DNA of 63,845 nucleotides, filler included, from Pseudovirgaria hyperparasitica (Eukaryota): assembly GCA_010093815.1 (NCBI GenBank). It is 10 parts of 8 records of this genome, joined end to end, with 100 filler letters (N's around TTAATTAATTAA, not from the genome) between each part and the next. Parts side by side here need not be neighbours in the genome. Positions count along the whole stretch, not along the records: positions 22,293 to 50,335 come from ML996568.1; 9 more parts are not named here. One strand, 5' to 3'. The stretch's first letter is position 1, and the number at the start of each line of letters is the position of its first letter. This document shows, piece after piece, positions 3,792 through 60,113 of this stretch. The translations under genes were made by a program, and so were the position numbers. The notes beneath the pieces were generated by a model that saw only the letters and a program-made list of their open reading frames with translations, was not told the origin of the DNA and did no database searches.

Positions 3792-5142
3792 TCTAACTTT
3801 AAGTTTAGAAAGTAATACTTTTCTTAAATCTAATCTATCTTTAATAAATATTATATATAAATACTTATATCTATAATATATCTTTAAATACTTAGACCTT
3901 AGAATCTATAATTTAATCTAATATTTTTATACTATATTCTATAATCTAATATATTTCTCTCTTTCTTTATCTAAACTTTAATAAATACTATATAATTAAT
4001 TAAGATTTCTAACTAATTAATTCTAGAGACCTATTTAAGTAGATATATACTCTAGAATTAAGCTCTTAAGAGTTCTACTAGTCTAGAGAGTAATCTAGAT
4101 TATCTTTAATCTTCTATATAATCTAGTTTAAATCTATCTCTATTAGATACCTATACTATGGTTAATTTAGATATATATATAGTACTACTTAATAGTAAAT
4201 AGTAACTTATATATATATAGTATAGTAAAGATATATATTATATTTTCTATATACTTCTATACTTATTATTTAGTAAAGTATACTACTCTCTATATCTAGT
4301 AGAATTTCTATATATTTATTATATTTATCTTATATTATAGTAGTACTATATTTATAGCTTTATATATACTAGAGATAAGATAGAGAATATAGTTCTATAT
4401 AGATTTAAGTTTTAGATATCTTATCTATATAAGAGATATATACTAATACTTATATCTATATTTAAAGATAGATTATACTATAGAGATATAACCCTAATAT
4501 ACTTTATTCTAGATAGTTCTTTATATATAGACTATAATCTAATATATAATAGCTTCTATCTTAAGAACTTTAGATATAATATATTATAGAAGGCCGCTCC
4601 TATAGCTCTATATATATATATCCCTAGCTCGATTATATGGCTTTATTATATATTTAAGGAGGGCGTTTTCCTTACTTATTTCGTTTAGTACGCTTCCCCT
4701 ATTACTAATATTTAACTATTTAACTTTTTCTTATATTTATAGGCTTCTATAGGTATTAATTATTAGGCTTAGCTATTAAAGAATTAATTAAGAGTATTAT
4801 ATAGACCCGTTCTATTATATAAGAGAACTAATAAGAAGTTATATATTTAAAGAGAACTTATAATATCTAGAAGAGATACTCGTGAGTTCGTCGCGACTAC
4901 TATACTAGAAATATAACTATTTATAAAAGGGATACACGTAGCGATAGCTTACTATAATATATTATCTATAATCTCTATTTAAGTTTATTATTAATTATTA
5001 TATAAAGTATATATATACTCTATATTAGTAGTCTAGTAAGAATATCTATTCTAGTATATTACTTACTTTCTCTAGTAGTCTAGTAAAGATATCTATTCTA
5101 GTATATTACTTACTTTCTCTAGTAGTCTATTTTCTATAATAC
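3792..5142. mobile_element. Extremely RIP-degenerate relic, possibly a minus-strand gypsy integrase 3' end; interrupted by a family C solo LTR
   Basis: Almost no CpA/TpG left. Faint KI...HISLL-like trace on the minus strand near 4220-4260. ~46-bp tandem duplication at ~5027-5128. Confidence 0.3.
4585..4956 (+). repeat. Solo LTR of family C with 4-bp TSD (ATAT)
   Basis: Matches 59742-60113 and the reverse complement of 26785-27155. ATAT at 4581-4584 and 4957-4960. Confidence 0.9.
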
Positions 5143-19100: not shown

Positions 19101-19512
19101 GATATATAAAGGGCTTATAAAGGCCTAGGTATCTATACTCCTCTAAGCCCGAACGGGCGCTATAGGACTTCTATACTACCTCTATAAGAGAGGCGTCCCT
19201 AATATATCTCTATAGTATAAGGCGTGCGGCCGGAGAGGTATAATACGCTACTATCTTATAATATACCCCGATCTTCATACGTAAAGGTAGAAGCTTATCT
19301 ATATAATAAGAACCTCTAATATCGTATAATAGCTTAATAAGTACCCTAAGGACGTCGCCCGGTAGATAATTATATATCTACTACTCCTCTAATTCTAGTA
19401 GACCCGGAAATATATGCCGGAAGAGACCCGGTACACGCTAGTAGTAACCCGATATATACCGGAAGAACCCCGGGAGAACCCCGATTATTAGTTAAGGGCA
19501 GCCCTTAACTAA
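16189..19512 (+). pseudogene. LINE ORF2 (APE endonuclease, RT, C-terminal Cys/His motif)
   Basis: One frame throughout: AI*EL, LGDFNLYH (16573), DSDH (~16813), PGLDRI, GIP*GSTISPILF (~18076), GYVDN (18166), CG...H...CP trace (~19215-19270). The start overlaps the ORF1 stop (TAAT[G>A]). The end is inferred. Confidence 0.85.
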
Positions 19513-19515
19513 TAA
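19485..19515. repeat. Palindrome copy 2, at the end of LINE ORF2
   Basis: TTATTAGTTAAGGGC-A-GCCCTTAACTAATAA, 15-bp perfect arms. Confidence 0.9.
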
Positions 19516-20145
19516 CCTCCGTACCTATACGTGCTACCTAAGGGTAAAATAACGGTAATATAGGCTATAGGCTAATAGGCGTACCCTATAGCTATATACT
19601 TAAGACGAAATAGAGGCTTAACAAGATATAGTTATAGACATAAGGAAGTTTTTCCCTATAGGGTTTCTTCTTACATAGTAGCTTAGACTAGAGGAGGCAT
19701 AGGCCTGTAGAGTACTACTCTACCTAGTTATATAATATTATTATTATTATTATTATATAGACTTAAGTAATTAGCTAGAGAATAGTAAGACCTACTTAAG
19801 GATATATTAATATCCTTAAAATTCACTTAAATTATAGCTGAAAATGCAGTCTATATTAGAGATAATCTAATTATTTCAGCCTATGTAGACGATATATTAG
19901 TTTTTACACCTAATACTAAAGATATAGATAACTTCTATTTAGAGATAACCAAGTACTCTAAATTAGATATATCTAATCTAGGGTAAGCTAAATATTACCT
20001 AGGAATAGAAATAAAGAGAGATATAACTAAAGGTTCTATTATATTNNNNNNNNNNNNNNNNNNNNNNNNNNNNNNNNNNNNNNNNNNNNTTAATTAATTA
20101 ANNNNNNNNNNNNNNNNNNNNNNNNNNNNNNNNNNNNNNNNNNNN

Positions 20146-21769
20146 TATATCCTAGCTACTAGTACTTATAGTATATAACTAACTTAGTATCTATATTAGT
20201 ATTCGGTGGTTTCCCTAAGCGGCACTCGGGTACTATATAGTCTATTCTACTATAGGTATAGTAGGTGACTTTAGGTTATTTATATAAGTCGTTTCTCGCG
20301 TCTCGATATATCGACTAGTAGAAAGATCCGTGGTACGGGCCTCGTCTTCTTAAGTTTATAGAGTAGTAGCGCCCACGAGGTATTCCGCGTGATCTATTAC
20401 TAAACCGGTCCTCTTTAGATGATTTTATATTAGATTAGATTAATAGGGATAGTTATACGCCTATATAACGTTAGTTATTTATTATACGCTAATATCGTTC
20501 TACGAGATTCGCGAGTACCTAAAGGTTAGTAGGGGTAGACGTTATAAGGTCGATGCGTTTCTTTACGCTTAGGTTAAGAGACCTTTTAAAGTCATCGTAT
20601 TATTAAACTATACGATCTTCCTTAGCTTCTCTTCTAAGAGGTCGGAGGTATTTAAGGAGTTATAACGGGGATTATCTCTCTCGCTATTAAGTCTTAAAGA
20701 TATAGCTCTAAGCCTATTTATGTCGCTCGGCTCTATCGCCGAAGTATTAAAGAAGGAATTTAGTAAACGTGTCCTAGTTATACGCATTCTTAGAGTATTT
20801 AATTCGATATACCATCTAACGTTTAGATAGCGTTAGGTCTAGGTAGTTCTATATAAACCTAATCTTATTACTATTATTCGTGAATAGGTGGAAGAATTAG
20901 CTATACTAGTAAGCTTATTCGTAAAAGCTCCTCCTAGTTTTACCGTCGAAGTAAGGTAGTTTCTTAGACCGAGGTAACTAGAATAGTAATAGACTTAGTT
21001 AGACTATTTCGGCTTAAGTTAATCTATATTAGTATAGATTAGTTACTACTAGTACTAAAGCGCGTAGTATAGCTTTAAGTCTAGTAGTTCGTCCTCGCGC
21101 TTTATTAAGTTCGCGAAGTTACTACTCGAGCTAAGTCTAACGCTACCTCTCCGTATATAGCTTAGTATATATATTATTATAAGGTATAGTTAATATTAGT
21201 TGGTTCTAACGAATTAATTTATTAACGTTAATAGGGTCTAGTCTTATAGTAAGAATAGGTCTAGTATAGTATAAACTAGACCGCGATAGAGTATAATAGA
21301 CTCCTTTCTTATTATCTAGGTAATCTTCTATAGTTATACGGAATACCGTACTAGTTATTAGTACGATAGCCTATAGGGTATACTTATTAGTAGAGGTAGT
21401 CGTAGGGAGACTATTCTCTTCGTTTAGATTTAGAGAGAGTCTCTTATATAAGGTAGTACTATAGGTACTATAGCGCGTAGTAGAAGCTATCTCTATAAGC
21501 TACCGTCATACTATATAGAGAGGAATTAAAATATAAAGAGTAAAGACGTGGGATAGTAGTCTAATAGTTTATAGAGAGATATAGAAATATATTTATAGAG
21601 TAATCTTACTCTTATACGAGGTTGATTCCTAATAAGTAGAAATCGGTTTATACGGTCTACTTATATAGTAACCTCGCTTGACTTAGCTAACTTAACCCAG
21701 CTCTAGCCACTACGTGGCTGTATGGATTAGAATAGTCTATATAGGTCCGTTATGGTTCCCGTCCTAATA
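20146..21769 (-). mobile_element. Family B 5' part (gag plus 5' LTR 21532-21769), inserted into another family B pol
   Basis: Reverse complement of 38516-40140. Flank at 21770 matches 26261 onward. Confidence 0.9.
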
Positions 21770-22192
21770 AACTAGGTAAGGTTAATTAGATATTTACGCC
21801 GGGCATTATCGCCCTTCCCGATAGCGCTAATAAACGGCCTACTAGGGACTTCGGTACCGTGTCTTTAGTTACCGGCTTCGGTCTTAGAGATTCGATTACT
21901 AGTATTAACGTTAGTATCTTACTAATCGCCTAATAACTTAAAATCTAACCTCGTCCTTAAGAGTTAGGCCTATAGCTACTCTAGGACCCTATAGCTACTA
22001 TAATTCTAGGCGCCTTCTTTATAGTTAGGTCTTCTTAATATTCTATTAGCTAGGTTTATACTTCTAGGTCGATAGTAGATTATAAAGTAAAAGTTTATAA
22101 GCTACTTAGTCTATTAGACCTATTAACGGTTTAAAACTATTATACTTATAAACCCCTTTAAGTTATAGTAATTAGTTAGTAACTTAACGTTA
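21770..22192 (-). mobile_element. Family B pol fragment (RNase H-integrase linker)
   Basis: Near-identical to 26261-26683 and to the reverse complement of ~41993-42416. Confidence 0.88.
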
Positions 22193-22292: not shown

Positions 22293-23916
22293 TATATCCT
22301 AGCTACTAGTACTTATAGTATATAACTAACTTAGTATCTATATTAGTATTCGGTGGTTTCCCTAAGCGGCACTCGGGTACTATATAGCCTATCCTACTAT
22401 AGGTATAGTAGGTGACTTTAGGTCATTTATATAAGTCGTTTCTCGCGTCTCGATATATCGACTAGTAGAAAGATCTATAGTATAGACCTCGTCTTCTTAA
22501 GTTCGTAGAGTAGTAGCGCCTATAAGGTGTTCCGCGCGATCTATTACTAAACTAGTCCTCTTTAGATGATTTTATATCGGATTAGATTAATAGGGATAGT
22601 CATACGTCTATACGACGTTGGTTATTTATTATACGCTAATATTATTCTATAAGATTCGTGAGTACCTAAAGGTCGGTAGAGATAGATATTATAAGGTCGA
22701 TGTGTTTCTTTACGCTTGGGTTAAGGGACCTTTTAAAGTCGTTACATTATTAAACTATATAATCTTCCTTAGCTTCTCTCTAAAGAGGTCGGAGGTATTT
22801 AAGGAGTTATAACGGGGATTATCTCTCTTACTATTAAGTCTTAAAGATATAGCTCTAAGTCTATTTATATCGCTCGGCTCTATCGCCGAAGTATTAAAGA
22901 AGAAATTCAGTGAACTTATCCTAGTTATATATATCCTTAGGGTGTTTAATTCGATATACTATCTAATGTTTAGATAGTATTAGGTCTAGGTAGTTCTATA
23001 TAAACCTAATCTTATTACTATCGTTCGTGAATAGGTAGAAGAATCGGCTATACTAGTAAGTCTATTCGTAAAAGCTCCTCCTGGTTTTACTATTAAAGTA
23101 AGGTAGTTTCTTAGGCTAAGGCAACTAGGATAGTAATAGACTTAGTTAGACTATTTCGGCTTAAGTTAGTCTATATTAGTATAGGTTAATTACTACTAGT
23201 ACTAAAGCGCGTAGTACGGCTTTAAGTCTAGCGGTTTATTCTCGCGCTTTATCGAGTTCGCGAAGTTACTACTTAAGCTAAGTCTAACGCTACCTCTCTA
23301 TATATAGCTTAGTATATATATTATCGTAAGGCGTGGTTAACGTTAGTCGGTTCTAACGAATTAATTTATTAACGTTAATAGGGTCTAGTCTTATAGTAAG
23401 GATAGGTCTAGTATAGTATAAACTAGACCGCGATGGAGTATAATAGACTCCTTCCTTATTATCTAGGTAATCTTCTACGGTTATACGGAATACCGTACTA
23501 GTTATTAGTATGATAGCCTATAGGGTATACTTATCGGTAGAGGTGGTTATAGAGAGACTATTCTCTTTATTTAGATTTAGAGAGAGTCTCTCGTATAAGA
23601 TAGTGCCACGGGTATTATAGCGCGTAGTAGGAGCTATCTCTATAAGCTACTATCATACTATATAGAGAGGAATTAAAATATAAAGAGTAAAGACGTGGGA
23701 TAGTAGTCTAATAGTTTATAGAGAGATATAGGAATGTATTTATAGAGTAATCTTACTCTTATACGAGGTTGATTCCTAATAAGTAGGAATCGGTTTATGC
23801 GGTCTACTTATATAGTGACCTCGCTTAACTTAGCTAACTTAACCTAGCTCTGGCCACTACGTGGCTACATAGATTAGAATAATCTATATAGATCTATTGT
23901 AGTTCCCGTCCTGATA
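22293..23916 (-). mobile_element. Family B 5' part (gag plus 5' LTR 23679-23916), inserted in the 3' region of the host family B copy
   Basis: Near-identical to 20146-21769, but with a different flank (GGTACCTTTT, the reverse complement of ~44144-44153). Confidence 0.9.
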
Positions 23917-25681: not shown

Positions 25682-27300
25682 ATAATAATCCTTTTTAGTA
25701 TACTATAGACCTTAATAATCTCGTTCTAGAATACCTACGCTAGTTCTTTAGATATAATCATCTTCTATACCGGGATATACCTAGATATCTTTATAAGTCT
25801 ATCCACGATAATAAGAATAGAATTATAACTTATTCTAAGTATCTCGCTTAGAGATAAGTTAACTATAAAGTCTATAGTAACGTCTTCCTATATAAAGAGG
25901 GGAGCTAAAAGAGGCTATAAATTCCTATATAGCTTATACCTAGGGGCCTTCGTTCTTTAATGAATCGGATAAGTAGCTATCTATTCTTTAATATACTTAG
26001 GTATATCTTCCTAAAAATAGTACTAACGAATTAAGCTTAGGGTACATATATACCTAAAGTATTCTACTAGGTTAGCGTTATAGTATCGGCTAACTATATT
26101 AAATCGTGTATTACCTATTAGTATATAGTACTTTCTATTATAGTAAAGTAAGCCGTCTACGAAGGTCTACTTATAGTCTACTTTAGTCCGTAATAACCTA
26201 TCTTACTATATTTTATATAACTTTAAAACTATTAGGTCTATCTTCTATAGATCTATAATTAACTAGGCGAGGTTAATTAGATATTTATGCTAGGTATTAT
26301 CGCCCTTCCCAATAGCGCTAATAAATAGTCTACTAAGGACTTCGGTACCGCGTCTTTAGTTACCGGCTTCGGTCTTAGAGATTTAATTACTGGTATTAAC
26401 GTTAGTATCTCGCTAATCGCCTAATAACTTAAAATCTAACCTTATCCTTAAGAGTTAGGCCTATAGCTACTCTAGGACTCTATAGCTACTATAATTCTAG
26501 GCGCCTTCTTTATAGTTAGGTCTTCTTAATATTCTATTAGCTAGGTTTATACTTCTAGATCGATAGTAGATTATAAAGTAAAAGTTTATAAGCTACTTAG
26601 CCTATTAGATCTATTAATAGTTTAAAACCATTATACTTATAAACCCCTTTAAGTTATAGTAATTAGTTAGTAACTTAATATTATATATAGTACCTTTAAG
26701 ATAATATCGCTACTATTTAAATAACTCTACTATTACTAGTAGCTCTTAGTTATAGATAGTATATCTAGTCTTAATATTAACTATTGTGGTGAGCTATCGC
26801 CACGTGTGTCCCTTAAGTAAATGGCTGTGTTCCTAGTATAGTAGTCGCGACGAACTCACAAGCATCTCTCCCAGGTATTATAAGTTCTCTTTGAACGTAC
26901 GACTTCTTATTAGTTCTCTTTTACGATAGGACGGGTCTATATAATACTCTTAATCAATTCTTCAATAGCTAAGCCTAATAATCAATACCCATAGAGGCCT
27001 ATGAACGTAAGAAAAGGTCGAATAGTCGAATATTAGTAATGGGGGAAGCGTGTGGAGCAGAATGACCGAGGAAAACGCCCTCCTTAAATATATAATAAGC
27101 CATATAATCGAGCTAGGGACACATATATATAGGGCTGCAGGAGCGGCCTTCTACATATACCTCCCCGGCCTATAGAACTACTACCCTTAGTAGTGTAGTA
27201 ACCGTATAAGAAACCGTATGAAGAACGCCCAAAAGAAAGACCTTAATATAAATAAAATGCGCCCCTAGTAAACCCCTCGGCGCGGGTAAACCTTAGCCCG

Positions 27301-27335
27301 GATTATTAGTTAAGGGCAGCCCTTAACTAATAATC
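27301..27335. repeat. Palindrome copy 3, at the end of family C ORF3
   Basis: GATTATTAGTTAAGGGC-A-GCCCTTAACTAATAATC, 17-bp perfect arms. Confidence 0.92.
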
Positions 27336-30287
27336 AGGCAGGTTTTTAGGCGCCTAATCTTAGTACTTAAGGTCGCGAGCTAGCTCCTAAAGAATCATGT
27401 CGCTTATCTTAGAGAGGTTAGATTCCTCCTCGTCGGATAGTTCATTAGGCCTCTTCTATCCGTAGAAGTTCTCTTCGACGTTATCTAGGCCCGCGTCGGG
27501 CTCGAATTTCTTAAAATTAATTAGCCGCTTAGTAGCGCGCGCCTCGTTAAATTCCTTCTAGAACGACCTATCCCTATAGACCAGCCTTTCCTACCTTACT
27601 ATTTTCTTAAAGGTCTCCACGAATACCCTCGAGCCCTCCTTAAACTAGGCGTCTACCTTAGCTTTAAGTTATTAAGGACTTGCGTTAAGCCACGTAGCTG
27701 CCTCTTCTTTCACCTCCTAGCTGTCCTATCTTTTACAGCCGACTAATACGTTACTAACGGCGTTAAAACTCGGGAGTTAAACTGCGACTAGGAAGGCAAA
27801 AGGAATCGCGCTATATTTATTAGAAAATCCTAACGGAGACGTAGGTCCCGGAGTTAAATTCCTATAAGCTGCTACGAGTTATTCCTATGTACCTATTTTA
27901 GGCACTTCTATTATCATGTAATTAGGGCCAATCGCGATATACCATAGAAGTATCATGCGTCTTCCACCCTTTACGGGACCCTAGGTGCCGTGCATTATTA
28001 GTAGGCTAGAGATACGTACTTTAAGGGACTAGTAGGGGACCGGGACGAAGGGACTAAATCGTTTCCTATCGTCCGTATTATAGATCTTATCGTTAATAGC
28101 CGTAATTATACCGTTTTGATTAACCCCCTCGCGGAGCTTAGCCTTCGACTACTATTCGTTTAAGAACTTATAGGAGCGGGGAACGATTATAGTATAGTCG
28201 TCACTTCGTTCGTCGTCGAGACTAATACTCCCCTAGATTATATTAAACCCGTATCTATCGCTGGGATCGAGGATTCGATTAATGGCGTTATCGAGATGCT
28301 TAAAACCCGTCTTATCGCCCCTATCCTAGGACTTCGCATAGTACGGGTACGAGATTAGATAGTAGTTAAGATCGGGCCGAAGAGCGATATAGGTGAGCTA
28401 GTAAAGTGGGCATTACCTAATAAACTATTAGATATAGGAGTGGTATATAGTTCGTAGCCAGCCGTAGTTCGATTTCTTATTAAATATGCGCTGGTAGTAC
28501 TTGTATATATTAAATTCATCCCTCGCGAGTTCTAGGATACTCTTATTAAGTATAGAGGTCGTCTTTTTAAGTGGCTCGAAGAGCCCTTTAATATTAATAC
28601 TTCCGGTACGTTCCCACTCGTCGAAGAGTTACCTACCTATTCTACCGTCCTCCTTCTAAATTACAAATGCGATACTAGTAAGGATGGTTTTAATATTAAT
28701 AACTTGCTTCGGGGTCTCTAGGGCCTAGTAATAATAGACACCTAATATCTCTATCGGATAAGGTGGCCGCGCGTACTTCGCGAACCAGGTATAGCGGTCC
28801 TTATAAACTTTAAGGGCCCCCACGTTATCTCTAAACTTATATACTATTTTAAGTCTCGCTACTAGGTTTAAGTAGGACACGCTAACGAGCATATTATTCT
28901 TTCTAGCCACGTCTTAGTAATACTTATAGTAGACTTTATACGGAACAGCCATGTTACCTATCTACGCTTTCTAGCGTACTAGTAGGGCTATTCCCTTAAT
29001 GCTCGTGAAATTCTTCTTTAATAATGTAGCTACCTTAAAAGTCTTCGTCACTAAAGGCGCGTATCGACACTTCTTAGGCTCGTCCTCTTCCTTAACTAAT
29101 GCTATCGTCTTAGGGTACGAACTAAGAACAACCGGGGATTGCCGTATAGGCGCCCCTGGTAATTACTAAGGGCCGGTAGATGAGGCACGCCCGCGAGTGG
29201 GTTTTATTAGCGTGGCTATAACGGGCACTAAAGACGTTCTTACATGGCCTAGTAAGGGACGTTTACTAGTGGTAGTGGGAGGAATACTTACTTTAAACGG
29301 ACGACTAGCTTCGAAGAGACGACGTGCTACTAAACTAGAAGGCGTACTTCGTGGAGGGGACTTTACCGCGGGCGTTACCTACGCTGGTTTTAGCGACGGT
29401 AAGGTCTAAGGCGGAGGCAATGCACTCATCTCTTTGATTTATAGGTAGTGTTCGACGGGCCTATAAACCATTCTACTTATCCGTGACTATTAACTAGCGG
29501 GGATAATAAGTCCCGTCTTATTATAGAACGTTAGTTTATTTTATTAGCTAGGGTAGTTTAAGAGTTACTAGAGAGATAGGCCGTCCTCGTTACTATCGCT
29601 AGCTAGGGCGGCATTAATATTAGAGCTCTAAAGATATGCCTTAATTCCCCTTCCCTTCTATCCCTGGCCGATTCGGGACTATAGGGATACGTTTAACTAG
29701 TTCCTCGCTCTCGCCCATGTTCGCACTCGTAAGAGCGCTACTAGCTTTTCCATGAAGTTCTATGTTTACTAGAGCTATCCGAGGGCGGATTAGAGTAACT
29801 AGCCGTCGTTATTAGGGAGGTCTTTTCGCTAGTTTTATAGGATTATATTTTTAGCTTTTAGGATACGGGAGTTAGTATCTCTTCCACGACGAATTATCTC
29901 GTGGACTTCTTTCGGAATAGAGGAGTTAATCTTTGCCTTACTATACCCTATTACGGCTTCTACTTCCTGGAAGAGGTCGACTATACTACTTAAGAGCTAT
30001 TCTACGAGGCTAGTGATGTGAAGGAGATTATTAAACATGTCTAGAATATAGTCCCATCGCTCTTACGGGTCCTGGATAGCGATAATTCGGTTAATAGTGG
30101 ACTTATTTATTTCTATAGCTTCTATAGTCTATCCGTGCGGAGTAGTAGATGGCCTTAATACCACGATAGCCGTCGATAGCCCTACTTTAGCACTTACGAC
30201 TCTTAACTAGGACCGCGTCTATCTTATTAGTGCTTAACGATCTTATAACTCTTTATAGGTAGGCGTTTTCTTCTTCGGCGGGGCTAT
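27306..30287 (-). pseudogene. Family C ORF3, ~990 codons, with a C-terminal PhyH-like 2OG-Fe(II) dioxygenase domain
   Basis: Frame conserved from a putative RIP-mutated start (M)APPKKKTPTYK (30287), through GWLRTIYHS, LISYPYYAK, TGFKHLD (HLD 28290-28298), I*GSISLDDERSDDYTIIVPRSYK and MHGT (H 27990-27992), to GRRMILLWY. Confidence 0.75.
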
Positions 30288-33200
30288 TATTATTATTAGT
30301 TCTATCGGCGAGTTACGTTCTAAGAAGAGGTGGTTTAAGCGAGGCGGAAGTAGAGGAGGAGGTTTTATTAATTAAGGAGGTATAGAGAGGTGTAAGAGGG
30401 AAGAGTTATATACTATCTTAAGTTCTCTTTTTATGCCTCCTCGAATACCGGGTATATGGTAATTTTTATAAATGATTCTTACTAACGGCCGTAGGCCCGT
30501 ATACGTGTCGAATCTATGAATGAATATATACTAGGTATATAGGAAATCTATGAATGAATGTATCTACCGGGTATATGGCGGAATCTATAAATGAATAGAT
30601 ACCGGGTATATTCTTATCCCCATGAGACTTCCTATAAGTATCTTTTTCTCTTATACCTCCTCCTTCTTTTCTTCCTTATTAGTTCCTAATGGGGCCCGTT
30701 CTATAGTAACGAAATAGGCCTTCGATGGGTAGGCTTCGATTATACGACCGGTTTTAATATATGGTAGGTAGAATTTCGTGTAAATGCCATTATGTCTTCT
30801 TTCGAGCATTACTTACTTTAATAATGGGTTTTATTATTTTATAGTAATAATAGGGTTTATTATCCTCTTTCGATGATAGAGTTTATCGTCATGAGACTAC
30901 TTTTATAAGTATCCCTTCCCTCCTTAAAAAAACTTCTGTCCCCTAGAAGGAGATATCGATTCTAGGGAAACGTAAATATTCCTCTCTATTGAAGTCTTAT
31001 AGAGTAGGAATCACTACTTCTACCCGGGTTCGTGTGGCGTCGTCGAGGTGTTCCGTAAGTTATTTATAATAGTTTTTCTTATCGCTACTCTCCTTATTTT
31101 CCTCGGTAATTCTTCTGATTGGTGGTCGTAAGGGCTCGTCGTGACTCTCGTTACTTATATTTCTCATGAAATATTTCTTTAACCTGTGGCTAGGAAACGT
31201 CCCTCTAAGCATGGCTCTATTAAGCTCCGCGAGCTTATAAGTGTAATTAAACACGGACTAGATTCTATATGGCCCCCTCTAATGCTACCTTAGCTTTCGC
31301 CCTATATCCTTCTATCGCTACGAGTCGTATAGAAGGATAATCGTATCGACTAGTAACGACTCTTAACGAAGGTAATGGTCGTTATTCCATGCCTCTCTTA
31401 ATTCCTTACGCGTTCGTGTCGCGTGGGCATGGGCCTCCTTAAGATCCTCGGATCTTCTCTTAAGTTATCTAGCTCGAAGAGCGAGTAAGTCGGACGTTAA
31501 TCGCACCTCGTTCTAAGGGAGCATTCGGAGCGACTCGAATTTAACTTTAATAGGTATGATTAGTTTATAGCCGAGCACGAGGTATACGGTATTATACCCT
31601 ATACTAGCACGTGTCGTTATTCTATCTACCTAGACGACCGTATAGAGGTGGTCGGGCTAGTTCTTGAATCCGCCATTAGTCATCTTCGCGAGAGTATTAG
31701 CGAGTAGTATAAAACTTCTCTTAATAATCCTATTTACTCGGGGATTATACATAGATATAACCTTCTAATAAATTCTATAGAGTCGGAGGAGCTCCTCTAT
31801 GGCATCTATATTTTCTCTACCACCGTTATAGGTGATTTTAGGAATGATTCTATATCTATAGATCACGTTCTTAAAGAGGAACTTTGCGACGACTATGGAC
31901 GTGGCCACCGTATATGCCTCCGCCTTAGTCCATCCGCTTAGCTATTCTTATATAGATACTACTTTACTATACCCCATGGAAGGTAGTAGTGCCGTTACGT
32001 CTAAGTATATTCTTTACCAAAGAACAGGCGTTATAATATAGTAGAGCCCTTTATTAAGACCTCCGAGGAGCTTACTTCGTCATTAATATTTATTATAGGT
32101 TTTCACGTGCTATCGCACGTCTCTACGTATACCTACCTACTAATACTTATCCTTAATCCTTCCGAGGGTCCCTTTGCTACCTCTATAATCTATCTCGTCG
32201 TGAGTAGTAGTAATTATACGCGCCCTAGTATTCGGATCCTTAATTACTCGTGTATATTAGCGATACCTATCTCCTCTCCGCTAGAGTATTTAGTCACGCA
32301 TAAGGAACTTTAGGTAGTCGGTTATAAAGGCCTTATACGCTCGGTCGGTTAGGTTAGTTAGCCTCTTAAGTATAGTAAGATACTTCGTAATCCTCTACTA
32401 TTTATCGCTATATTCATCTATTAAGGGAGACTTAATGGCGGTATAGTCGAGTGTCTCTATCGTGTAATCTCTCCTACTAACGGGCTTAATTAACGACGTC
32501 TCTAGCACGTCTATATATAGAGCTATATCCACGAACTCGTCTAGGTTAAAGGTAGGAACGTCTAGTGGTTCTTCTCCTTCGTATATCCGTGAGATACTAT
32601 TAGCGACTACGTTGCGCTTTCTAGGTATATACCTAACTATGAAGTTCTATATCTAAATCCACGCGAGCCACCTAGTAACGAGCGCCCCTAGTAAGTTAGT
32701 TACGGTGTGGTTAATTTAAGCGACTAGAGTATTCGCGTCTATTTCTATAATAAAGTGCGTGCTATAGAGGTATTACTAGAACTTCTATAACGCGTGGAGG
32801 AGGGCTCGGTACTCTAGCTTCATGGTGTCGTAGTTTCTCTTAGCTTTTAACTATATTCCTCTATTATACCGCGATAGCTAACGTTTATAATTCTCGTTCT
32901 CCTATATTAACGTAGCTCCCTATCTAACGTTACTAGAGTCTACTACTAGAATTATATCTTCCATACCTGTCCCGTACTATAACGTTATTAGTACGGGAGT
33001 AGTAGTTAGAGCTATCTTTAGCGCGTCTATCGAGGTCTACTCCTTGGCTATCTACTACTAGGCCGATTTATTCTTTAATAGTATAAATAGCGGCGATGCG
33101 ATAACAGCGTACCCGGGGATCTATATCCGGAAATATATATAAACGCCAAGGAAGGCTCGCACATTCATCGTGTTTTTATAGGGTTTCTAGTCCCTAATAG

Positions 33201-34575
33201 TAGTAACCTTTTTATTACTCGGTCGCCTCCCTTTAATATCGCAGACGTATCCTATAACGTTAGCGGCTTTAACACACCACTAAGTCTTCTTACTACTTAG
33301 GGCGTATCCAGCGCGCTCTATATCCGCGAGAACCTTATCCACGTTAATTAAATGTTCTAGGATATACCTACGAATTCTAGGCAGGGCCTCCTTAGAGTTA
33401 TATTTCGTCGTAGGTCCTTTAATGCCTAAGTCATCTAGAAATAGTAGAGCCCTCTCCGGGATGTATTCTTATATAATAGTTAATATAATCCTAACGAACT
33501 AAGCTACTAAATTAGTGGCCCCTTAAGGTAATATTATCCTATATAGTAATCCTAGGGGCGTTATAAACCCCGTTAAGTCTTGGTAATACTCTACTAATGG
33601 AATCTAATCGTATCCTAAGAAGAAGTCGGTAAATGTTAAGACGGCTATCCCCGTGAAGTACTCTAAGAACTCTTTATACGAGGGCGGCGTGGCCGCATTA
33701 TGAATAGTAACTCGGTTGATTTCTATCACCGAATTAATTAACCTATGATCTCGTTCCTTATTAGCTTCCTTCTTCTTTTCCACGAGAAAATAGGCGTTTC
33801 GATAAGGACTACTATAGGGCTCGAGCCTTCTACTATTAAGACGCTCTTTTAGGATCGTGAGTACCTTCCTATAAAGGGCTCTAGGAATGTTAAAGTTCTT
33901 AGCCTACTATATCTTATGTTCTACCGTTCGGATCTCCTACGGAGGTACCACCTCCTCGTTAAATTTACTAAGGTATAAGAATTTCTATGCTAGTACTTCC
34001 TCGCGATATAATAAGATTATATATAGTAACTTGAGTTCCGCGGGACGTAGCTCTATTCTAATCTTTAGCTAACTTATACGTAGAGGCGTTAGACGTGTTC
34101 CTAGCGGGATAGTTACCCTTCGAGGCTCTATTAGCCTATTAAACGCGTTAAGGCCTAGGTGGACGGCTGGAAGAAGTGCCTGCTATGCGATTGCTCGTTC
34201 ACGCTAGTCTAGATACCCTAATAGATTCCTAGGAACCTTTCGGTGGGCTTCGGAGTTATCCACGGGGTGTACTTTAACTCCCTTTCTTTTATATATGGTG
34301 GCTATACTAAATCCCTTTAATACCCCGGATGAATACCGTCTTTAGAGGCCGGTGGAGCCTACTATAAGCCGTTCTATTATCATGCCCTATTTATATACGA
34401 AGGCAGCGTACCTTGCCGCCGTAACTAGGGCGGCTAAGTCATCTTTTCTCGATAACCGAGTAACATTTTTAGGCCGGATTTTCTCGGAAAGTAACTCTAT
34501 ATAACTCATTTCTATATCTATATAAAAATATAGTCTATCCCCTTCGTTAGTGGGTTTACCGGACTCTATTTAGTG

Positions 34576-34614
34576 CGGATTATTAGTTAAGGGTAGCCCT
34601 TAACTAATAATCCG
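34576..34614. repeat. Palindrome copy 4, inside family C pol between protease and RT
   Basis: CGGATTATTAGTTAAGGG-TAG-CCCTTAACTAATAATCCG, 18-bp arms. Confidence 0.92.
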
Positions 34615-37294
34615 GCTCAACTCCGGCTTCCGGCGACATGCTCTACTATATAGTTAGTCTCTAGCCACGGAGTTACCCTTCTTCTCTAAGACTAGAATAT
34701 ACTCGTCCGGGCTGGTTTCAAAGGTTATACGTTCTTATCTATATACGGAGTAGACTATTAAGAGTACTTACCCGGAGGCTAACCTCTACACCGTAAGTAA
34801 GGCCTATCTAGCATATGGCTCCCCTAGGATAAGGTTATAATTAAGTTCGCTATACACGAATATCGAAGTAGCCGTAACGATCCGACCTATACGGATAGGG
34901 TATTACTATACTATTCCTACGAATAGAGTACTATACTAAGTAGCGCTAACTAAACTCGAGTTCTTTATATATGGTAGAAGCGAAGATATCGCTAGCCCGA
35001 GACGCCTCGTAGTATCTAGTCGAATACTATTTACCTATGCGCCACTATCGAATAGTACTATACTAGTCGCCCTTTTAGGACTAACTTCTACGGGGTACCT
35101 CGGATACTCGGCCACTAGCCTTACTATCCCTTCCTTAAGCTAATTAATATCTTATTACGTAATAGCCGTCCCCGTGGCATAGAGGGGTACTAATATATTA
35201 AGTTTATTTATCTCGGGAGCCATAGTATAGTCGTTTCTTCCTTTCTTCTCGGCTCTCTCTTCTCGAGCCTTACGGACCTCTCTAGCTATAAAGTCGGGGG
35301 CGCCCTTCTCAAATACCGCGCGACGTAAGTCGCTATTAAGGCTTAATAGTTCGCTAATAGTAATATTTATGGTTGTCCCTAGAACGCGCACTAGCCATGC
35401 TTCGCTAGCTTCTATACTTAGCCGCTATCCTTCGCGTAGATAGTTATTAAGCTTAACGCCTTAGATACGTGCCTTTTAACTAGGATTTAGGCCATCCCCT
35501 TTATCTATCTTATCCTCCGGCGCTATTAGCTCTTATTTAGACGTTCCCTAGTCGCTACTCTTCTCGCCGTCCTCCTATTCCTCGATAATCCTTATATACT
35601 ACCCTTCACGCATTCCGCGGAGACGGGCGATCTTTCTTTCCTTAGTATGATTAGGTGTACTCTTCGTGATCCCCCTTCTAGATATTATAAGTATAGCGGG
35701 CTCTTCTAGGGCCATCTCCTCGTGGATATATCTATTACTAGCCACGTTAAAGCGTTCGTGGAATTCTATATATCTATCTTTCTTACTCTCGGGCGACGTG
35801 ACTTCTTCTTCCGAATTACTATCCGCCGAGGCCTGGTAGAGACCCTTCGTAGGTTTTATACTAATACTATATACCAGCACTCCCTATGAAGCGTTAATGT
35901 TTACTATAGACGTGGAAACCTTCACTCCTCCTCCGTACTAGCTTAGGCCGTTTTAAACCGTTACTACGTAGTTCCGGATAGCTTATAGAGTAGCTTATAG
36001 CCCTACTAAGGAGGGTAGTAATAGGATTTCTTCTCTATTCGCCCTAAAACGCCCTCGGAATACTCACACCCCGTTAATATTTAGTAATCCGTCTCTAATA
36101 TATCCTACTATCTCCGGACATCTATATATTAGGTAATCTTCTCCGTACGTGATGCATACGATCGGTCTTCAAGGCCTATCCTAGGCTATAACACCTTCTT
36201 AGGAGTCTCGGGTAGAGACGTATTCTCTATTCTATATATAATTCTATGGATAAACTTGCGTTAGTTCTATAGGTATGCCTCGTGCTTAGGGATGTGCTAA
36301 AAGATTTAGCCTTCGCGCCTACTAGTTAATAATAGCCGAAAGTAGCTTAGGTTCGTACTTCTTAAGGGATAGGAATAAGGGATTAGAGGTAAAGTAGGAC
36401 TTTATCTTAATTAACGTGAGGTCTAGTTTACTAAATCTTTCTACTATCTCGTTAAACTTATCCAATCCTAGCGTGACGTGTACTACGACTAGAGAGGGGT
36501 GGTTAAATTCATTAGTTCTTCTTTCTTCATATAACTACTCTTCTAAGCCGGTCTTCTTACTCCCTATCTTTAATTTATAGTATATGGCTATGGCTAGCTC
36601 TTGTGCGGCTAAGTGCTTATTAATACGAGCTAGTTCCTTAAGTGCTCTAGCCTTTCGTGATACGAAGCTATAGATAATTACCTAGTCGTAACTATATGCT
36701 TCTATCGTAAGTTAACATTTCTCTATAGCCCGAGCCTTAAGACTATTAGGTAGCCCTTCTAGGAAGAGCTCTATTCGCGAATACGAGCTTAGGCTTCCTT
36801 TAGCCGTAAGTTTCTCCGTAATAACATGATACCGGGAGTAGTATATGGGGAGAGAGTAGGATGGGTCTACTTTAACCATTTCCACGTATTTTCGGATAAA
36901 GTAGATGGTGCCTTCCTCGAGGGTAGAGTTAAATAGAGAGAATTCCTTTAATAATTCTTCACGTAGCGTGGCCCACTACTATTTCTAAAACCCACTTATT
37001 CCTTTAATAGTAGGACGGAGATGGTCCTCGTAGTATGACGGTAGGGAGGTTATCTTCTTATTAGGCGGAACTTCGTAGTTTATATACATGTCCTCGTACT
37101 TCCGAAGGAAGGCCGTGATGTTTATTCCTTTAAAGCGCTCGGGGGCTAGGGTAGGTAGAGGTACTATCCTTCCTTATCGCGTAAATACTACGAAGAAGTC
37201 AAGCATCTCTCTATGAGTTACTAGGTCGTTGTTTTAAGCTCCTATCGTACTATTACTAGTAGTAGGTGTGCTAGTAGAGACGCTGGGGGTAAGG

Positions 37295-37822: not shown

Positions 37823-38909
37823 AAATTATGGTAAGCTATCGCCACGTGTGTCCCTTAAGTAAATAGCTATATTCCTAGTATAGTAGTCACGACGAACTCA
37901 CAAGCATCTCTCCCAGGTATTATAAGTTCTCTTTAAACGCACGACTTCTTATTAGTTCTCTTTTACGATAGGACGGGTCTATATAATACTCTTAATCAAT
38001 TCTTTAATAGCTAAGCCTAATAATCAATACCCATAGAGGCCCATGAACGTAAGGAAAGGTTAAATAGTCGAATATTAGTGATGGGGGAAGCGTGTGGAGC
38101 AGAATGACCGAGGAAAACGCCCTCCTTAAATATACAATGAGCCATGTAATCGAGCTAGGGACACATACATGTAGGGCTGTAGGAGCGGCCTTCCACACTA
38201 TTTTACGTAAGAAGAACGTAACTAGATACTATTAGACCTTTTTAGACTTAGTTAGTCTAGGCTAGAAGAGAATATCTAAGATTATAAATTCTAACGCGTC
38301 GGTTTTAATACGGATAGATTTAGTCGGGTTAAAGTATACTAGTAATAGGGTAGTTATAAATACCTCTTTGATTTTCTTAAAGGAGGCCCTTTCGCCTTCT
38401 AATAATTCTATAGGCTATAATTTAATATTATACTATTTCTATCTACCGCGGACCGTAATAGACGAATCTATAGTAGTAGTATACGCGTTAAGTAGTGCTA
38501 CTAGCCGGGAGAAATTGTTAGGACGGGAACCATAACGGACCTATATAGACTATTCTAATCCATGTAGCCACGTAGTGGCTAGAGCTAGGTTAAGTTAGCT
38601 AAGTTAAGCGAGGTTACTATATAAGTAGACCGTATAAACCGATTCCTACTCGTTAGGAATTAACCTCGTATAAGAGTAAGATTACTCTATAAATATATTC
38701 CTATATCTCTCTATGAACTATTAGACTACTATCCTATATCTTTACTCTTTATATTTTAATTCCTCTCTATATAGCACGACGGTAGCTTATAGAGATAGCT
38801 CCTACTACGCGCTATAATACCCATAGTACTACCTTATACGAGAGACTCTCTCTAAATCTAAACGAAGAGAATAGTCTCTCTATAACCACCTCTACTAATA
38901 AGTATACCC

Positions 38910-48600: not shown

Positions 48601-48913
48601 GTTAAAGTAAGATAGTTTCTTAGGCTAAGGTAACTAGGATAGTAATAGACTTAGTTAGACTATTTCGGCTTAAGTTAGTCTATATTAGTATAGATTAGTT
48701 ACTACTAGTACTAAAGCGCGTAGTACGGCTTCGAGTCTAGCGGTTTATCCTTACGCTTTATTGAGTTCGCGAAGTTACTACTTAAGCTAAGCCTAACGCT
48801 ACCTCTCCGTATATAGCTTAGTATATATATTATTATAAGGCGTGGTTAACGTTAGTCGGTTCTAATAAATTAATTTATTAACGTTAATAGGGTCTAGTCT
48901 TATAGTAAGGATA

Positions 48914-50435: not shown

Positions 50436-50619
50436 ACGCGCTAAAGATAGTATATAGCTATATAAAATTCGTTAGAAAGGATATAATCCTAACGAAGATA
50501 CTTAGGAACCTATAATAAATATTAGTAAAGTAGTAATATTAGTATATAAGTAGCGATTAGTAAAGGAAGCCGCGGAATCATAGAGAATTATACTAAAGTA
50601 TAGTAATTCGATGTTTTTT
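50436..50619 (+). mobile_element. Family A chromodomain-coding fragment, interrupted by family B
   Basis: Matches 56647-56771 (YKIR*KGYNPNEDT*EP). Confidence 0.85.
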
Positions 50620-56871: not shown

Positions 56872-59800
56872 TCCTTCATATTACTAGCCTCATAGAATAG
56901 CTCTTAAGTAGTATAGTTAACCTCTTCTAGGAAGTAGAAGCCATAATAGAATATAGTAAGGTAAAGATTAACTCCTCTATTCCGAAAGAAGTCTACGAGA
57001 TAATTCGTTATAGAAGAGATACTAACTCCCGCATCCTAAAAGCCAAAAATATAATCCTATAAAACTAGCGAAAAGACCTCCCTAATAACGACGGCTAGTT
57101 ACTCTAATCCGCCCTCGGACAGCTCTAGTAAATATAGAACTTTATAGAAAAGCTAGTAGCGCTCTTATGAATACGGACATAGGCGAGAGCGAGGAACTAG
57201 TTAAACATATCTCTATAGTCCCGAATCGGCTAGGGATAGAAGGGAAGGGGAATTAAGGTATATCTTTAGAGCTCTAATATTAATGCCGCTCTAGCTAGCG
57301 ATAGTAACGAGGACGGTCTATCTCTCTAGTAACTCTCGAACTACCCTAGCCGATAAAATAAACTAACGTTCTATAATAAGACGGGACTTATTATCCCCGC
57401 TAGTTAATAGTTACAGATAAGTAGAATGGTTTATAGGCCCGTCGAACACTACCTATAAATTAAAGAGATGAGTATATCGCCTCCGCCTTAGACCTTACCG
57501 TCGCTAAAACTAGCGTAGGTAACGCCCGCGGTAAAGTCCCCTCTACGAAGCACGCCTTCTAGTTTAGTAGTATATTATCTCTTTAAAGCTAGTCGTCCGT
57601 TTAAAGTAAGTATTCCTTCTACTACTACTAGTATACGTCCCTTACCGGGCCATGCGAGAACCTCTTTAGTGCCCGTTATAGCTACGCCGATAAAACCTAC
57701 TTATGGACGTGCCTTATCTACCGGCCCTTAGTAATTACTAGGGGCGCCTACACGATAATCCCCGGTTATTCTTAGTTCGTACTCTAAGACGATAGTATCG
57801 GTCGAGGAAGAGGACGAGCCTAAGAAGTGTCGATGCGCGCCTTTAGTAACGAAGACTTTTAAGGTAGCTATATTATTAAAGAAGAATTTCACGAGCATTA
57901 AGGGAATGGCCCTACTAGTATGCTAGAAAACGTAGATAGGTAATATGGCTGTTCCGTATAAAGTCTACTATAAGCATTACTAAGACGTGGCTAGAAAGAA
58001 TAATATACTCGTTAGCGTGTCCTACTTAAACCTAGTAGCGAGACTTAAAATAGTATATAAGTTTAGAGATAACGTGGGGGCCCTTAAAGTTTATAAGGAC
58101 CGCTATACCTAGTTCGCGAAGTACGCGCGGCCACCTCATCCGATAGAGGCATTAGGTATCTATCGTTACTAGGCCCTAGAGACCCTAAAGTAAGTTATTA
58201 ATATTAAAACCATTCTTACTAGCATTATATTTGTGATTTAGAAGGAGGATAGTAGGATAGGTAGGTAACTCTTCGACGAGTAGGAACGTACCGGAAGTGT
58301 TAATATTAAAGGGCTCTTTGAGCCACTTAAAAAGACGACCTCTATACTTAATAAGAGTATTCTAGAACTCGCGAGGGATGAATTTAATATGTATAAGTAC
58401 CACTAGCGTATATTTAATAAGAAATTAAACTACGGCTGGCTACGAACTATATACCACTCCTACATCTAATAGTTTATTAGGTAATACCTACTTTACTAGC
58501 TCACCTATATCGCTCTTCGGCCCGATCTTAACCACTATCTAATCTCGTACCCGTACTATGCGAAGTCCTAGGATAGGGGCGATAAGACGGGTTTTAAGTA
58601 TCTCGATAACGCTATTAATTGAATTCTCGATCCTAGCGATAGACACGGGTTTAATATAATCTAGGGGAGTATTAGTCTCGACGACGAACGAAGTAACGAC
58701 TATACTATAATCGTTCCCCGCTTCTATAAGTTCTTAAATAAATAGTAGTTGAAGGCTAAGCTCCGCGAGGGGGTTAATTAAAACGGTATAATTACGGCTA
58801 TTAACGATAAGATCTATAATACGGACGATAAGAAACGATTTAGTCCCTTTGTCCCGGTCCCCTACTAGTCCCTTAAAGTGCGTATCTCTAGCCCACTAAT
58901 AATACACGGCGCCTAGGGTCCCGTAAAGGGTGGAAGACGTATAATGCTTCTATAGTATATCGCGATTGGCCCTAATTACATGATAATAGAAGTGCCTGAA
59001 ATAGGTATATAGGAATAACTCGCAGTAGCTTATAGGAATTTAACTCCGGGACCCACGTCTCCGTTAGGATTTTCTAATAAATATAGCGCGATTCCTTTTG
59101 CCTTCCTAGCCGTAGTTTAACTCCCGAGTTTTAACGCCGTTAGTAACGTATTAGTCGGCCGTAAAAGATAGGATAGCTAGAAGGTGAAAGAAGAAGCAGC
59201 TACGTGGCTTAACGCAAGTCCTTAATAACTTAAAGCTAAGGTAGACGCCTGGTTTAAGAAGGGCTCGAGGGTATTCGTGGAGACTTTTAAGAAAATAGTA
59301 AGGTAGAATAGGCTGGTCTATAGGGATAGGTTGTTCTAGAAGGAATTTAATAAGGCGCGCGCCGCTAAGCGGCTAATTAATTTTAAGAAATTCGAGTCTA
59401 ACGCGGGCCTAGATAACGTCGAAGAGAACTTCTATAGATAGGAGAGGCCTAACGAACTATCCGATAAGGAGGAATCTAACCTCTCTAAGATAAGCGATAC
59501 GATTCTTTAGGAGCTGGCTCGCGACCTCGAGTACTAAGATTAGGCGCCTAAAAACCTACCTAATTATTAGTTAAGGGCTGCCCTTAACTAATAATCCGGG
59601 CTAAGGTTTACCCGCGCCGAGAGGTTTACTAGGGGCGCATTTTATTCGTATTAAGGTCTTTCTTTTAGGCGTTCTTCACACGGTTTCTCACACGGTTACT
59701 ATACTACTAAGAGTAGTAGTTCTATGGGCCGGGGAGGTATATATAGAAGGCCGCTCCTGCAGCCCCACATGTATATATCCCTAGCTCGATTATATGGCTT

Positions 59801-60113
59801 TATTATATATTTAAGGAGGGCGTTTTCCTTGGTCATTCTACTCGGCGCGCTCCCCCTATTACTAATATTCGACTATTCGACCTTTCCTTACGTTTATGGG
59901 CCTCTATGGGTATTGATTATTAGGCTTAGCTATTAAAGAATTGATTAAGAGTATTATATAGACCCGTCCTATTATAAAAGAGAACTAATAAGAAGTTATA
60001 CGTTTAAAGAGAACTTATAATACCTGGGAGAGATACTTGTGAGTTCGTCGCGACTACTATACTAGGAACACAGCCATTTACAAAAGGGACATACGTAGCG
60101 ATGGCTTACCATA
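56872..60113 (+). mobile_element. Family C 3' part: second ORF3 copy (to ~59591), PPT and 3' LTR (59742-60113)
   Basis: Reverse complement of 26785-~30025. Same-frame FKYLD (58599, His codon RIP-mutated) and HGA (58905). Confidence 0.92.
59563..59595. repeat. Palindrome copy 6, at the end of the second ORF3
   Basis: ATTATTAGTTAAGGGC-T-GCCCTTAACTAATAAT. Confidence 0.92.

Follow-up and report, generated by a model that had tools for sequence, protein, structure and literature searches.

A RIP-inactivated Ty3/gypsy retrotransposon of Pseudovirgaria hyperparasitica carries a predicted PhyH-type dioxygenase with relatives on gypsy elements and Helitrons

We analysed a 63,845-nt stretch of DNA (the window), composed of 10 parts of 8 records of the genome of the fungus Pseudovirgaria hyperparasitica (GCA_010093815.1). 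Within it, an 11.4-kb Ty3/gypsy long terminal repeat (LTR) retrotransposon on the minus strand carries, in addition to gag–pol, a further frame of 994 codons, here called ORF3 (open reading frame 3). The ORF3 product is modelled as a protein of ∼950 residues in which a disordered linker joins a helical N-terminal domain (N-domain) to a C-terminal dioxygenase domain of the double-stranded beta-helix (DSBH) type. By its predicted fold, the catalytic domain belongs to the Fe(II)/2-oxoglutarate (2OG) dioxygenase superfamily, and is a predicted enzyme. The element has been killed by repeat-induced point mutation (RIP), and we consider it probable that ORF3 was its accessory Fe(II)/2OG dioxygenase, made by the element and kept for its propagation. 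The copies in the window are dead relics, and their interest lies in the protein family that they reveal.

The window is read as holding one full-length and one truncated copy of the same retrotransposon, both RIP-inactivated. In the full-length copy, a 5′ LTR (37827..38197, 371 bp) and a 3′ LTR (26785..27155; 26783–27155 by alignment), each with TG…CA ends, stand in direct orientation, are 94% identical and enclose the coding region. The sequence ATAG at both outer flanks is a possible 4-bp target-site duplication, weak if taken alone. A Pfam scan of gag–pol, one continuous RIP-damaged frame (31123..37167, 5′ end approximate) read with X at stops, located reverse transcriptase (RT, 33247–33654; RVT_1, E = 6.6e-4, under the Pfam cut-off), RNase H (RH, 32659–33042; RT_RNaseH, 4.6e-14, and RT_RNaseH_2, 1.9e-12) and the integrase (IN) zinc domain (32095–32235; Integrase_H2C2, 3e-3, under the Pfam cut-off) in canonical order, in a single frame and on the same strand. 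Pfam did not detect a protease (PR) in the RIP-damaged window pol; in three related loci described below (L014, L052 and L063) it was found upstream of RT. By tblastn, the window gag–pol frame matches intact gypsy pol in 20 or more loci, at 31–37% identity over ∼1,050 residues. A spacer of ∼0.8 kb (30288..31122), no frame of which matched anything, lies between the end of integrase homology and copy 1 of ORF3 (30287→27306), and a polypurine tract (PPT, 27156..27170; GGCCGGGGAGGTATA (GGCCGGGGAGG…)) abuts the 3′ LTR, all of these features being on the minus strand. Copy 2 of ORF3, truncated at its 5′ end, is on the plus strand (56872..59591; codon frame from 56874, 906 codons), in a region that matches 30025–26787 of the other strand at 93% identity. 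The same PPT precedes its adjoining 3′ LTR (59742..60112, plus strand, approximate ends), and in both copies the ORF3 frame stops ∼135 bp short of PPT and LTR. Because the order on the minus strand is LTR–gag–pol–ORF3–PPT–LTR, ORF3 has the sense orientation of the element, with pol before it and the PPT after it. An earlier note, made from this DNA alone, had described a Ty3/gypsy element with an extra ∼990-codon frame at this place, and the LTRs, the RT/RNase H/IN order and the PPT bear that description out; its ‘sense-strand’ frame is sense relative to the element, the minus strand being the one that encodes copy 1.

The window is AT-rich (GC 22–43% per 2 kb) and is a nest of repeats, among which the differences are almost all transitions. 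The two copies of ORF3 align in frame over 2,720 nt with zero indels. Transitions account for 179 of the 182 differences between them, and most have a CpA/TpG context: A follows in 67 of the 106 C/T differences, and T precedes in 38 of the 73 G/A differences. The RIP indices are 1.79 for TA/AT and 0.35 for (CA+TG)/(AC+GT), to be judged against the usual thresholds for these indices. Transition bias and index values both read as signatures of RIP, by which the two copies of ORF3 in the window were inactivated.

The earlier note had given the frame in two copies, and both were found, with all of its quoted motifs. Copy 1 contains 62 in-frame stops (40 TAG and 22 TAA); over the 906 shared codons there are 56 stops in copy 1 and 65 in copy 2 (63 TAA/TAG and 2 TGA). 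These counts agree with the note's statement that the stops are nearly all TAA or TAG, but they do not prove the frame, as each of the six frames contains few TGA codons (0–6). This scarcity arises because RIP depletes TpG. An antisense frame of the same stretch has fewer stops (55) than the ORF3 frame, and stop counts and stop types were both rejected as proof. The note's merged reading as an open frame had to be given up, because 53 stops are common to both copies and the merged copies are still closed. The (M)APPKKK start that it quoted is present as a motif, its ‘Met’ being an ATA codon in copy 1 only, plausibly a RIP-changed ATG.

The reality of ORF3 as coding sequence is argued from homology. 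A profile of the two window copies with X at stops (A1) was searched against 1.84 billion representative proteins and matched 619 of them at E ≤ 1e-3 and 101 at E ≤ 1e-30 (best, 1.4e-78), many being ∼900 residues long and aligning over the same C-terminal 450–500 residues. A family hidden Markov model (HMM) of 909 positions, built from 51 relatives with the window rows excluded, matched copy 1 in one piece over positions 41–879 (E = 4.6e-129) and copy 2 with E = 1.7e-120, and matched none of the remaining five frames at E ≤ 10. The 26 stops of the catalytic half include 8 on columns that are mostly Q or W in 21 homologues, against a background of 6.6%, and four of the stop-bearing columns are invariant (Q620, Q621, Q685 and W712), as expected from CAR→TAR and TGG→TAG changes.

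The predicted architecture is common to the 21 full-length homologues (alignment A3). In copy 1 the N-terminal helical domain corresponds to ∼29508–30023 and the catalytic domain to ∼27558–29075 (both minus strand), with the P/S/T-rich linker between them. An AlphaFold model of full length was obtained for a naturally intact relative, the 949-residue ORF3 at positions 7570–10416 of locus L014. Here the N-domain (residues ∼17–205) is helical, with a predicted local distance difference test score (pLDDT) of up to 95, and is followed by a disordered linker of ∼150 residues (pLDDT ∼31), which is the P/S/T-rich stretch of the earlier note. An ESM Atlas search with the N-terminal domain gave no usable feature match, and only structural neighbours at a template-modelling (TM) score ≤0.33. 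A CxC…CxxH motif is conserved ahead of the dioxygenase domain and may form a structural zinc site, and the N-termini of some family members are basic.

The C-terminal domain of L014, modelled alone (AlphaFold2 [AF2], 93 sequences), is a predicted DSBH with pLDDT 96.6 and a predicted TM score of 0.93, and the family HMM shows the window copy to be collinear with it. An H-x-D…H…R arrangement is invariant in 34 (A4) and in 51 (A8) homologues, the Arg lying 10 residues past the distal His. In the model these residues sit on strands E242–245, E345–347 and E355–358, their canonical positions. Copy 1 keeps all four: the H-L-D codons at 28290..28298 (H664 and D666, a putative metal-binding HxD aligned with the family-invariant H and D), the distal His H766 (27990–27992) and the predicted 2OG-binding Arg R776 (27960–27962), the last two likewise in family-invariant columns and all on the minus strand. 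In copy 2 the first His has become Tyr (CAY→TAY). The DSBH core, the 2-His-1-carboxylate triad and a basic residue ∼10 past the distal His can thus all be recognised in sequence and model.

The model was compared with 48,161 representatives of the PDB using VIA-align. The top matches were YbiU (4rgk, Z = 21.0, 281 residues aligned, root-mean-square deviation 3.2) and Candida albicans Gig2 (6akz, Z = 19.6), both DUF1479 proteins, followed by some twenty PhyH-type 2OG oxygenases at Z = 12–15 (among them EvdO1, proline hydroxylase, EctD, SnoK, KanJ and AsqJ), with human PHYH (2a1x) at 13.8 and PHYHD1 (3obz) at 13.1. The best matches span model residues 30–436, and 47 representatives reached Z ≥ 8, among them, for the AlkB family, ALKBH3 (8jnr, 8.5) and 3h8o (8.2), and further NgTET1 (5cg8, 8.2) and JMJD3 (2xxz, 8.0). 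Foldseek matched 172 PDB chains at E ≤ 1e-3; the ∼30 listed were mostly characterised 2OG oxygenases together with putative YbiU/DUF1479-type proteins, and SnoN, EvdO1, GriE and EctD appeared at E ∼1e-6. In a viral structure library, the matches were PhyH-annotated proteins of giant viruses and phages. The DSBH fold, for which the earlier note had proposed AlphaFold and Foldseek as the check, was recovered by both.

At the level of sequence families, Pfam PhyH (PF05721) was matched by 10 of 34 homologues at E ≤ 0.01 (best 1e-8) and by 4 of the 18 top matches, the gathering cut-off being reached by P0016 only (22.5 versus 22 bits). The same 34 + 18 homologues gave no Pfam match to Tet_JBP, AlkB-type or JmjC families or to DUF1479, for which the similarity is one of fold only, and no nucleic-acid-binding domain was recognised in the ORF3 family. 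Together with the invariant HxD…H…R and the nearness of the modelled fold to the PhyH superfamily, the PhyH matches support the earlier reading of the C-terminal half as an Fe(II)/2OG dioxygenase of PhyH type, and the family is, as judged by sequence, a remote and unnamed branch of them.

Relatives were collected by scanning metagenome contigs of the Joint Genome Institute with a 9-sequence alignment. The scan yielded 350 confirmed stretches, and the analysis continued with the best 80 loci. Linkage to gypsy was probed by tblastn with the window pol frame, requiring a high-scoring pair of at least 300 residues on the same strand that ended <4.5 kb upstream. Gypsy pol was found upstream in 17 of the 34 loci that have ≥6 kb of sequence upstream of the domain, and additionally in three shorter loci (L045, L071 and L079); L063, a circularly permuted contig, has the same pol–ORF3 order. 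LTR pairs surround gag–pol–ORF3 in 15 of 21 loci examined. Those of L014 (127–404 and 10470–10748) are 99.6% identical and those of L013 are 100% identical over the part present, while the LTRs of RIP-damaged copies are 91–96% identical. L063 has a direct-repeat pair too, the sixteenth, which is no LTR but the place where the ends of the permuted contig overlap. No enclosing LTR pair was found in the available contig DNA of L045 (which has a single repeat pair, downstream of ORF3), L052, L071, L078 and L079. ORF3 is intact in L013, L014, L052 and L063, where it stands beside a canonical PR–RT–RH–IN pol (with an additional chromodomain in L063) at a distance of 110–800 bp, fused to pol in none of the four. 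The placement of homologues between gypsy pol and a 3′ LTR, on which the earlier note had staked its reading in advance, was thus found in half of the testable loci. In a tree of 79 domain rows the pol-linked copies fall at ∼5 places (the L013/L014 clade, L010, L052, L063 and the window pair), and the pol and ORF3 trees of these five gypsy lineages are compatible and poorly resolved.

The intact elements of L013 and L014 are 89% identical, and their ORF3 frames differ at 231 of 2,847 nt and 48 of 949 residues. For this pair the ratio of non-synonymous to synonymous substitution rates (dN/dS) was 0.197 for gag, 0.086 for pol and 0.083 for ORF3; within ORF3 it was 0.08 for the N-domain and 0.044 for the catalytic domain. 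Purifying selection on ORF3 is equal to that on pol in this one pair. Since constraint as strong as that on pol was maintained while the subfamilies diverged, ORF3 would most simply be something that the element needs. Among the 79 domain rows, all four of H, D, H and R are kept in 48 of 51 rows with two stops or fewer, the exceptions being L032, with a stop at the Arg, L017, where the alignment breaks off, and L073, in which Tyr replaces the first His. Among the rows with ≥10 stops they are kept in 1 of 28, the changes listed being H→Y, D→N and R→Q or stop, which are RIP-type transitions. The one row is window copy 1, which keeps the four residues despite 17 stops in the domain, probably by chance.

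The family is not confined to retrotransposons. In L064 (1341-9221), L073 (3036-10488) and L059 (1-5635), Helitron-type units have a Rep/Hel gene (recognised by DUF6570, Helitron_like_N and PIF1), then an ORF for the N-domain (family HMM positions 34–236, E ∼1e-14) and then an ORF for the dioxygenase, all on the same strand. These ∼9-kb units are collinear, with 78–81% nucleotide identity, and their dioxygenase has a dN/dS of 0.11–0.19. Family members also adjoin Helitron genes in L038, L061 and L048, and all of the Helitron-associated loci except L048 fall in one clade of 12 rows (support 85). The same two-domain protein is carried by an LTR retrotransposon and by Helitrons. Organism names were available for 16 of 120 listed relatives, annotated as hypothetical or uncharacterised: 15 are fungal and one is a moss. 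Four of the named hosts were classified, one each in Leotiomycetes, Candelariomycetes, Eurotiomycetes and Dothideomycetes, all Pezizomycotina. The moss sequence, P0185 (49% identity), is an unnamed protein of Sphagnum balticum. Because every other named relative carries a fungal name, fungal DNA in the moss assembly is likely, and our guess is that P0185 is probably such a contaminant.

In the mechanism that we favour, living relatives of the window element would make the ORF3 enzyme as a separate ORF downstream of pol, a separate product being suggested by the lack of fusion to pol in the four intact elements; its message would probably be subgenomic or spliced. The enzyme is predicted from sequence and model to be catalytically active, and would be kept since it helps the element to propagate. 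It would act in trans on a target common to RNA-copying and DNA-copying elements, which may be a host silencing or defence pathway, whether marks on chromatin, DNA or RNA or a host protein.

Several observations weigh against this picture. The window ORF itself matches no Pfam family even at E ≤ 10, and neither the two-copy profile, the 93-sequence profile nor P0046 found a PDB sequence match beyond noise. The nearest structures, YbiU and Gig2, are uncharacterised and the others are small-molecule enzymes, with no nucleic-acid or histone demethylases among them. No gypsy pol lies upstream in the other half (17) of the 34 testable loci, and several of these unlinked loci hold intact genes in contexts that are mixed or do not look like transposable elements; part of the family may for these reasons be host genes. 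The evidence from linked loci is also less independent than its number suggests, since at least 12 of them represent one element family from related metagenome samples and only ∼5 gypsy lineages are independent, on long, RIP-biased branches. The L073 copy with Tyr at the first His is stop-free and Helitron-linked. Finally, the ORF3-bearing copies of the window and at least 26 relatives have been destroyed by RIP, so ORF3 gives elements no immunity to it.

That the role is one of counter-defence, the enzyme modifying either a silencing mark or a protein of host defence or regulation, is a tentative proposal, to which we give somewhat less than an even chance. It is favoured among possible roles because a gypsy element and a Helitron share little beyond their reliance on transcription from the chromatin of the host and the genome defences that both face. 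The earlier note had gone further, suggesting a nuclear oxygenase that could oxidise or demethylate DNA, RNA or histones and so counter RIP and methylation silencing; its substrate would be 5-methylcytosine or N6-methyladenine in DNA, N6-methyladenosine (m6A) in RNA or methylated histones. This has precedents in the orchid gypsy AlkB ORF with m6A demethylase activity (PMC9289625) and in the TET/JBP genes of fungal DNA transposons, Helitrons included (PMC12730594). The occurrence of the family on gypsy and Helitron, whose joint need is expression from chromatin, is in its favour, and the long disordered linker and the basic N-termini of some members would fit a nuclear factor. However, the scores of ALKBH3 (8.5), NgTET1 (8.2) and JMJD3 (8.0) fall far below those of YbiU (21) and the PhyH-type enzymes (13–15), so the fold speaks against calling ORF3 an AlkB-, TET- or JmjC-like demethylase. 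The count of AlkB, TET and JmjC matches among the scanned homologues was zero, a nucleic-acid-binding domain was likewise not recognised, and the ORF3-bearing copies are saturated with RIP. We regard this more specific activity as unlikely.

Less probable still is that ORF3 is a hitch-hiker, a small-molecule hydroxylase of host type that was captured repeatedly and is neutral, or useful to the host and not to the element. The closest characterised folds (SnoN/SnoK, EvdO1, GriE, EctD, proline hydroxylases and KanJ) do belong to enzymes whose substrates are small molecules or free amino acids, half of the testable loci lack the pol linkage, and reference genomes annotate members as ordinary hypothetical genes. 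A dN/dS equal to that of pol between two diverged element subfamilies would however be hard to explain for a gene irrelevant to transposition; the pol–ORF3–PPT position recurs in ∼5 gypsy lineages with compatible pol and ORF3 trees, and metabolic PhyH enzymes do not typically have a two-domain layout of ∼950 residues with a disordered linker of 150 residues. That the frame does not belong to the element at all, being a host gene caught up in nested insertions or a frame that looks open by chance in RIP-biased DNA, as the nest of repeats and the still fewer antisense stops might suggest, is refuted on these data by the shared end of both copies before the same PPT and LTR, by intact LTR–gag–pol–ORF3–LTR relatives with LTRs 99.6–100% identical and by the single-frame match to the family HMM, and we give it almost no weight.

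Dioxygenases carried by mobile elements have been described in other settings, and Iyer et al. are said to have reported TET/JBP dioxygenases on fungal DNA transposons in 2014. The closest parallel to ORF3 is in Phalaenopsis, where Ty3/gypsy elements contain an ORF for an AlkB-type 2OG-dependent dioxygenase with m6A RNA demethylase activity (Alvarado-Marchena et al. 2022, PMC9289625). The orchid elements are likewise a Ty3/gypsy lineage with a fixed extra Fe(II)/2OG dioxygenase ORF, which is read as a counter to host surveillance. They differ in being 25-kb elements of a plant that carry an AlkB enzyme, whereas ORF3 belongs to fungal elements of ∼10–11 kb and has a PhyH/DUF1479-like fold (AlkB, Z ∼8). 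Unlike the orchid ORF, ORF3 encodes ∼950 residues with an extra N-domain, occurs also on Helitrons, and is known from sequence and model alone.

A survey of the fungal DNA transposons that carry TET/JBP genes (KDZ, hAT, EnSpm, Helitron and others) states explicitly, in the part available, that no retrotransposon carries them (Kojima 2025, PMC12730594). The ORF3 family resembles the TET/JBP system there described in being a dioxygenase present on several fungal transposon superfamilies, including Helitrons, with a conserved facial triad and many copies per genome. It is a different dioxygenase family (NgTET1, Z = 8.2, versus YbiU, 21; no Tet_JBP match in Pfam), and, in contrast to the TET/JBP carriers covered there, the hosts that we looked up are Leotiomycetes, Eurotiomycetes, Dothideomycetes and Candelariomycetes. 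It is tempting, if doubtful, to see in ORF3 an undescribed transposon-borne 2OG oxygenase family of Pezizomycotina that is passed between gypsy elements and Helitrons, or kept by both, and has a counter-defence role. Its target would be silencing by heterochromatin or DNA methylation, marks linked to RIP, or an RNA or protein component of these host systems. The family would be the first dioxygenase on a fungal retrotransposon and a PhyH-fold ascomycete analogue of TET/JBP on basidiomycete DNA transposons.

YbiU (4rgk), Gig2 (6akz), PHYH and PHYHD1 share with ORF3 the fold and the H-x-D…H…R arrangement, but they and other PHYH-type proteins are stand-alone enzymes of ∼250–450 residues, unlinked to mobile elements, and have no sequence-level match to ORF3. 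Our literature search surfaced no paper characterising YbiU or Gig2, and to our knowledge Gig2 has no known function. Among fungal gypsy elements with additional genes, brtn of Botrytis cinerea is reportedly an antisense gene of unknown function. It is the additional ORF of Boty/BcGypsy1 (10.1101/2021.04.13.439636), which resembles our element, by description only, as a fungal gypsy with a gene beyond gag–pol. A literature search of incomplete coverage, with Repbase and supplements outside its scope, found no PhyH-like dioxygenase described on fungal LTR elements or Helitrons, and none is described in the accessible part of a 2011 survey of fungal LTR elements (PMC3248453). This suggests that ORF3 represents a little-known family of transposon-borne enzymes.

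Elsewhere in the window, a further LTR of the same family (4580..4960, plus strand), apparently solo, is 84–87% identical to the LTRs of the element. A different repeat of ∼1.6 kb occurs twice in tandem-like arrangement (20146–21770 and 22293–23916, ∼91% identical) inside the RIP-affected nest around the element, and again, on both strands, at 38515–40139, 47802–48916 and 50618–51474.

Among the related loci, the contig ends of L063 (1–167 and 10054–10220, 99.4%) and of L073 (1–785 and 9706–10490, 91%) repeat each other, and these permuted contigs suggest tandem copies or a collapsed multi-copy assembly of the carrier elements. In L028, inverted repeats of 290 bp (2245–2534 and 13251–12962, 92% identical) enclose two divergent paralogues (4929–8060 and 9755–12712) and an integrase C-terminal remnant (9028–9443); this locus may be another type of carrier or a decayed tandem of elements. 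No recognisable element surrounds several intact members (L003, L004, L005, L016 and others), and an ORF of ∼1,280 residues lies next to family members in three of these loci (L016:518-4354, L004:4481-8344 and, on the minus strand, L005:∼19009-19710; ∼24% identity). The L016 and L004 copies of this ORF, like other neighbours, have no Pfam match at E ≤ 1; it may be a partner gene or an uncharacterised mobile-element protein. Mobile-element genes of other kinds are plentiful in several of the non-gypsy neighbourhoods. One family member has a DUF6589 ORF (L039:12847-14355, E = 1.5e-60) immediately downstream, and another, in L003, has an ‘rva_4’ integrase-core ORF 2 kb upstream.

Two settings are known for dioxygenases of this kind, TET/JBP genes in DNA transposons of fungi and AlkB genes in gypsy elements of orchids and in RNA viruses of plants, and these cases have been read as weapons against epigenetic or epitranscriptomic silencing. 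ORF3 would add a third, structurally distinct dioxygenase family, present on several gypsy lineages and on Helitrons in at least four classes of filamentous ascomycetes. Even as a mere passenger it would clearly document the movement of a gene from one class of element to the other, between class I and class II. If its target is a silencing mark or a defence protein, the family would offer a direct handle on the fight of transposons against RIP and heterochromatin in the Pezizomycotina, and would also provide the first function for the DUF1479-like branch of PhyH enzymes.

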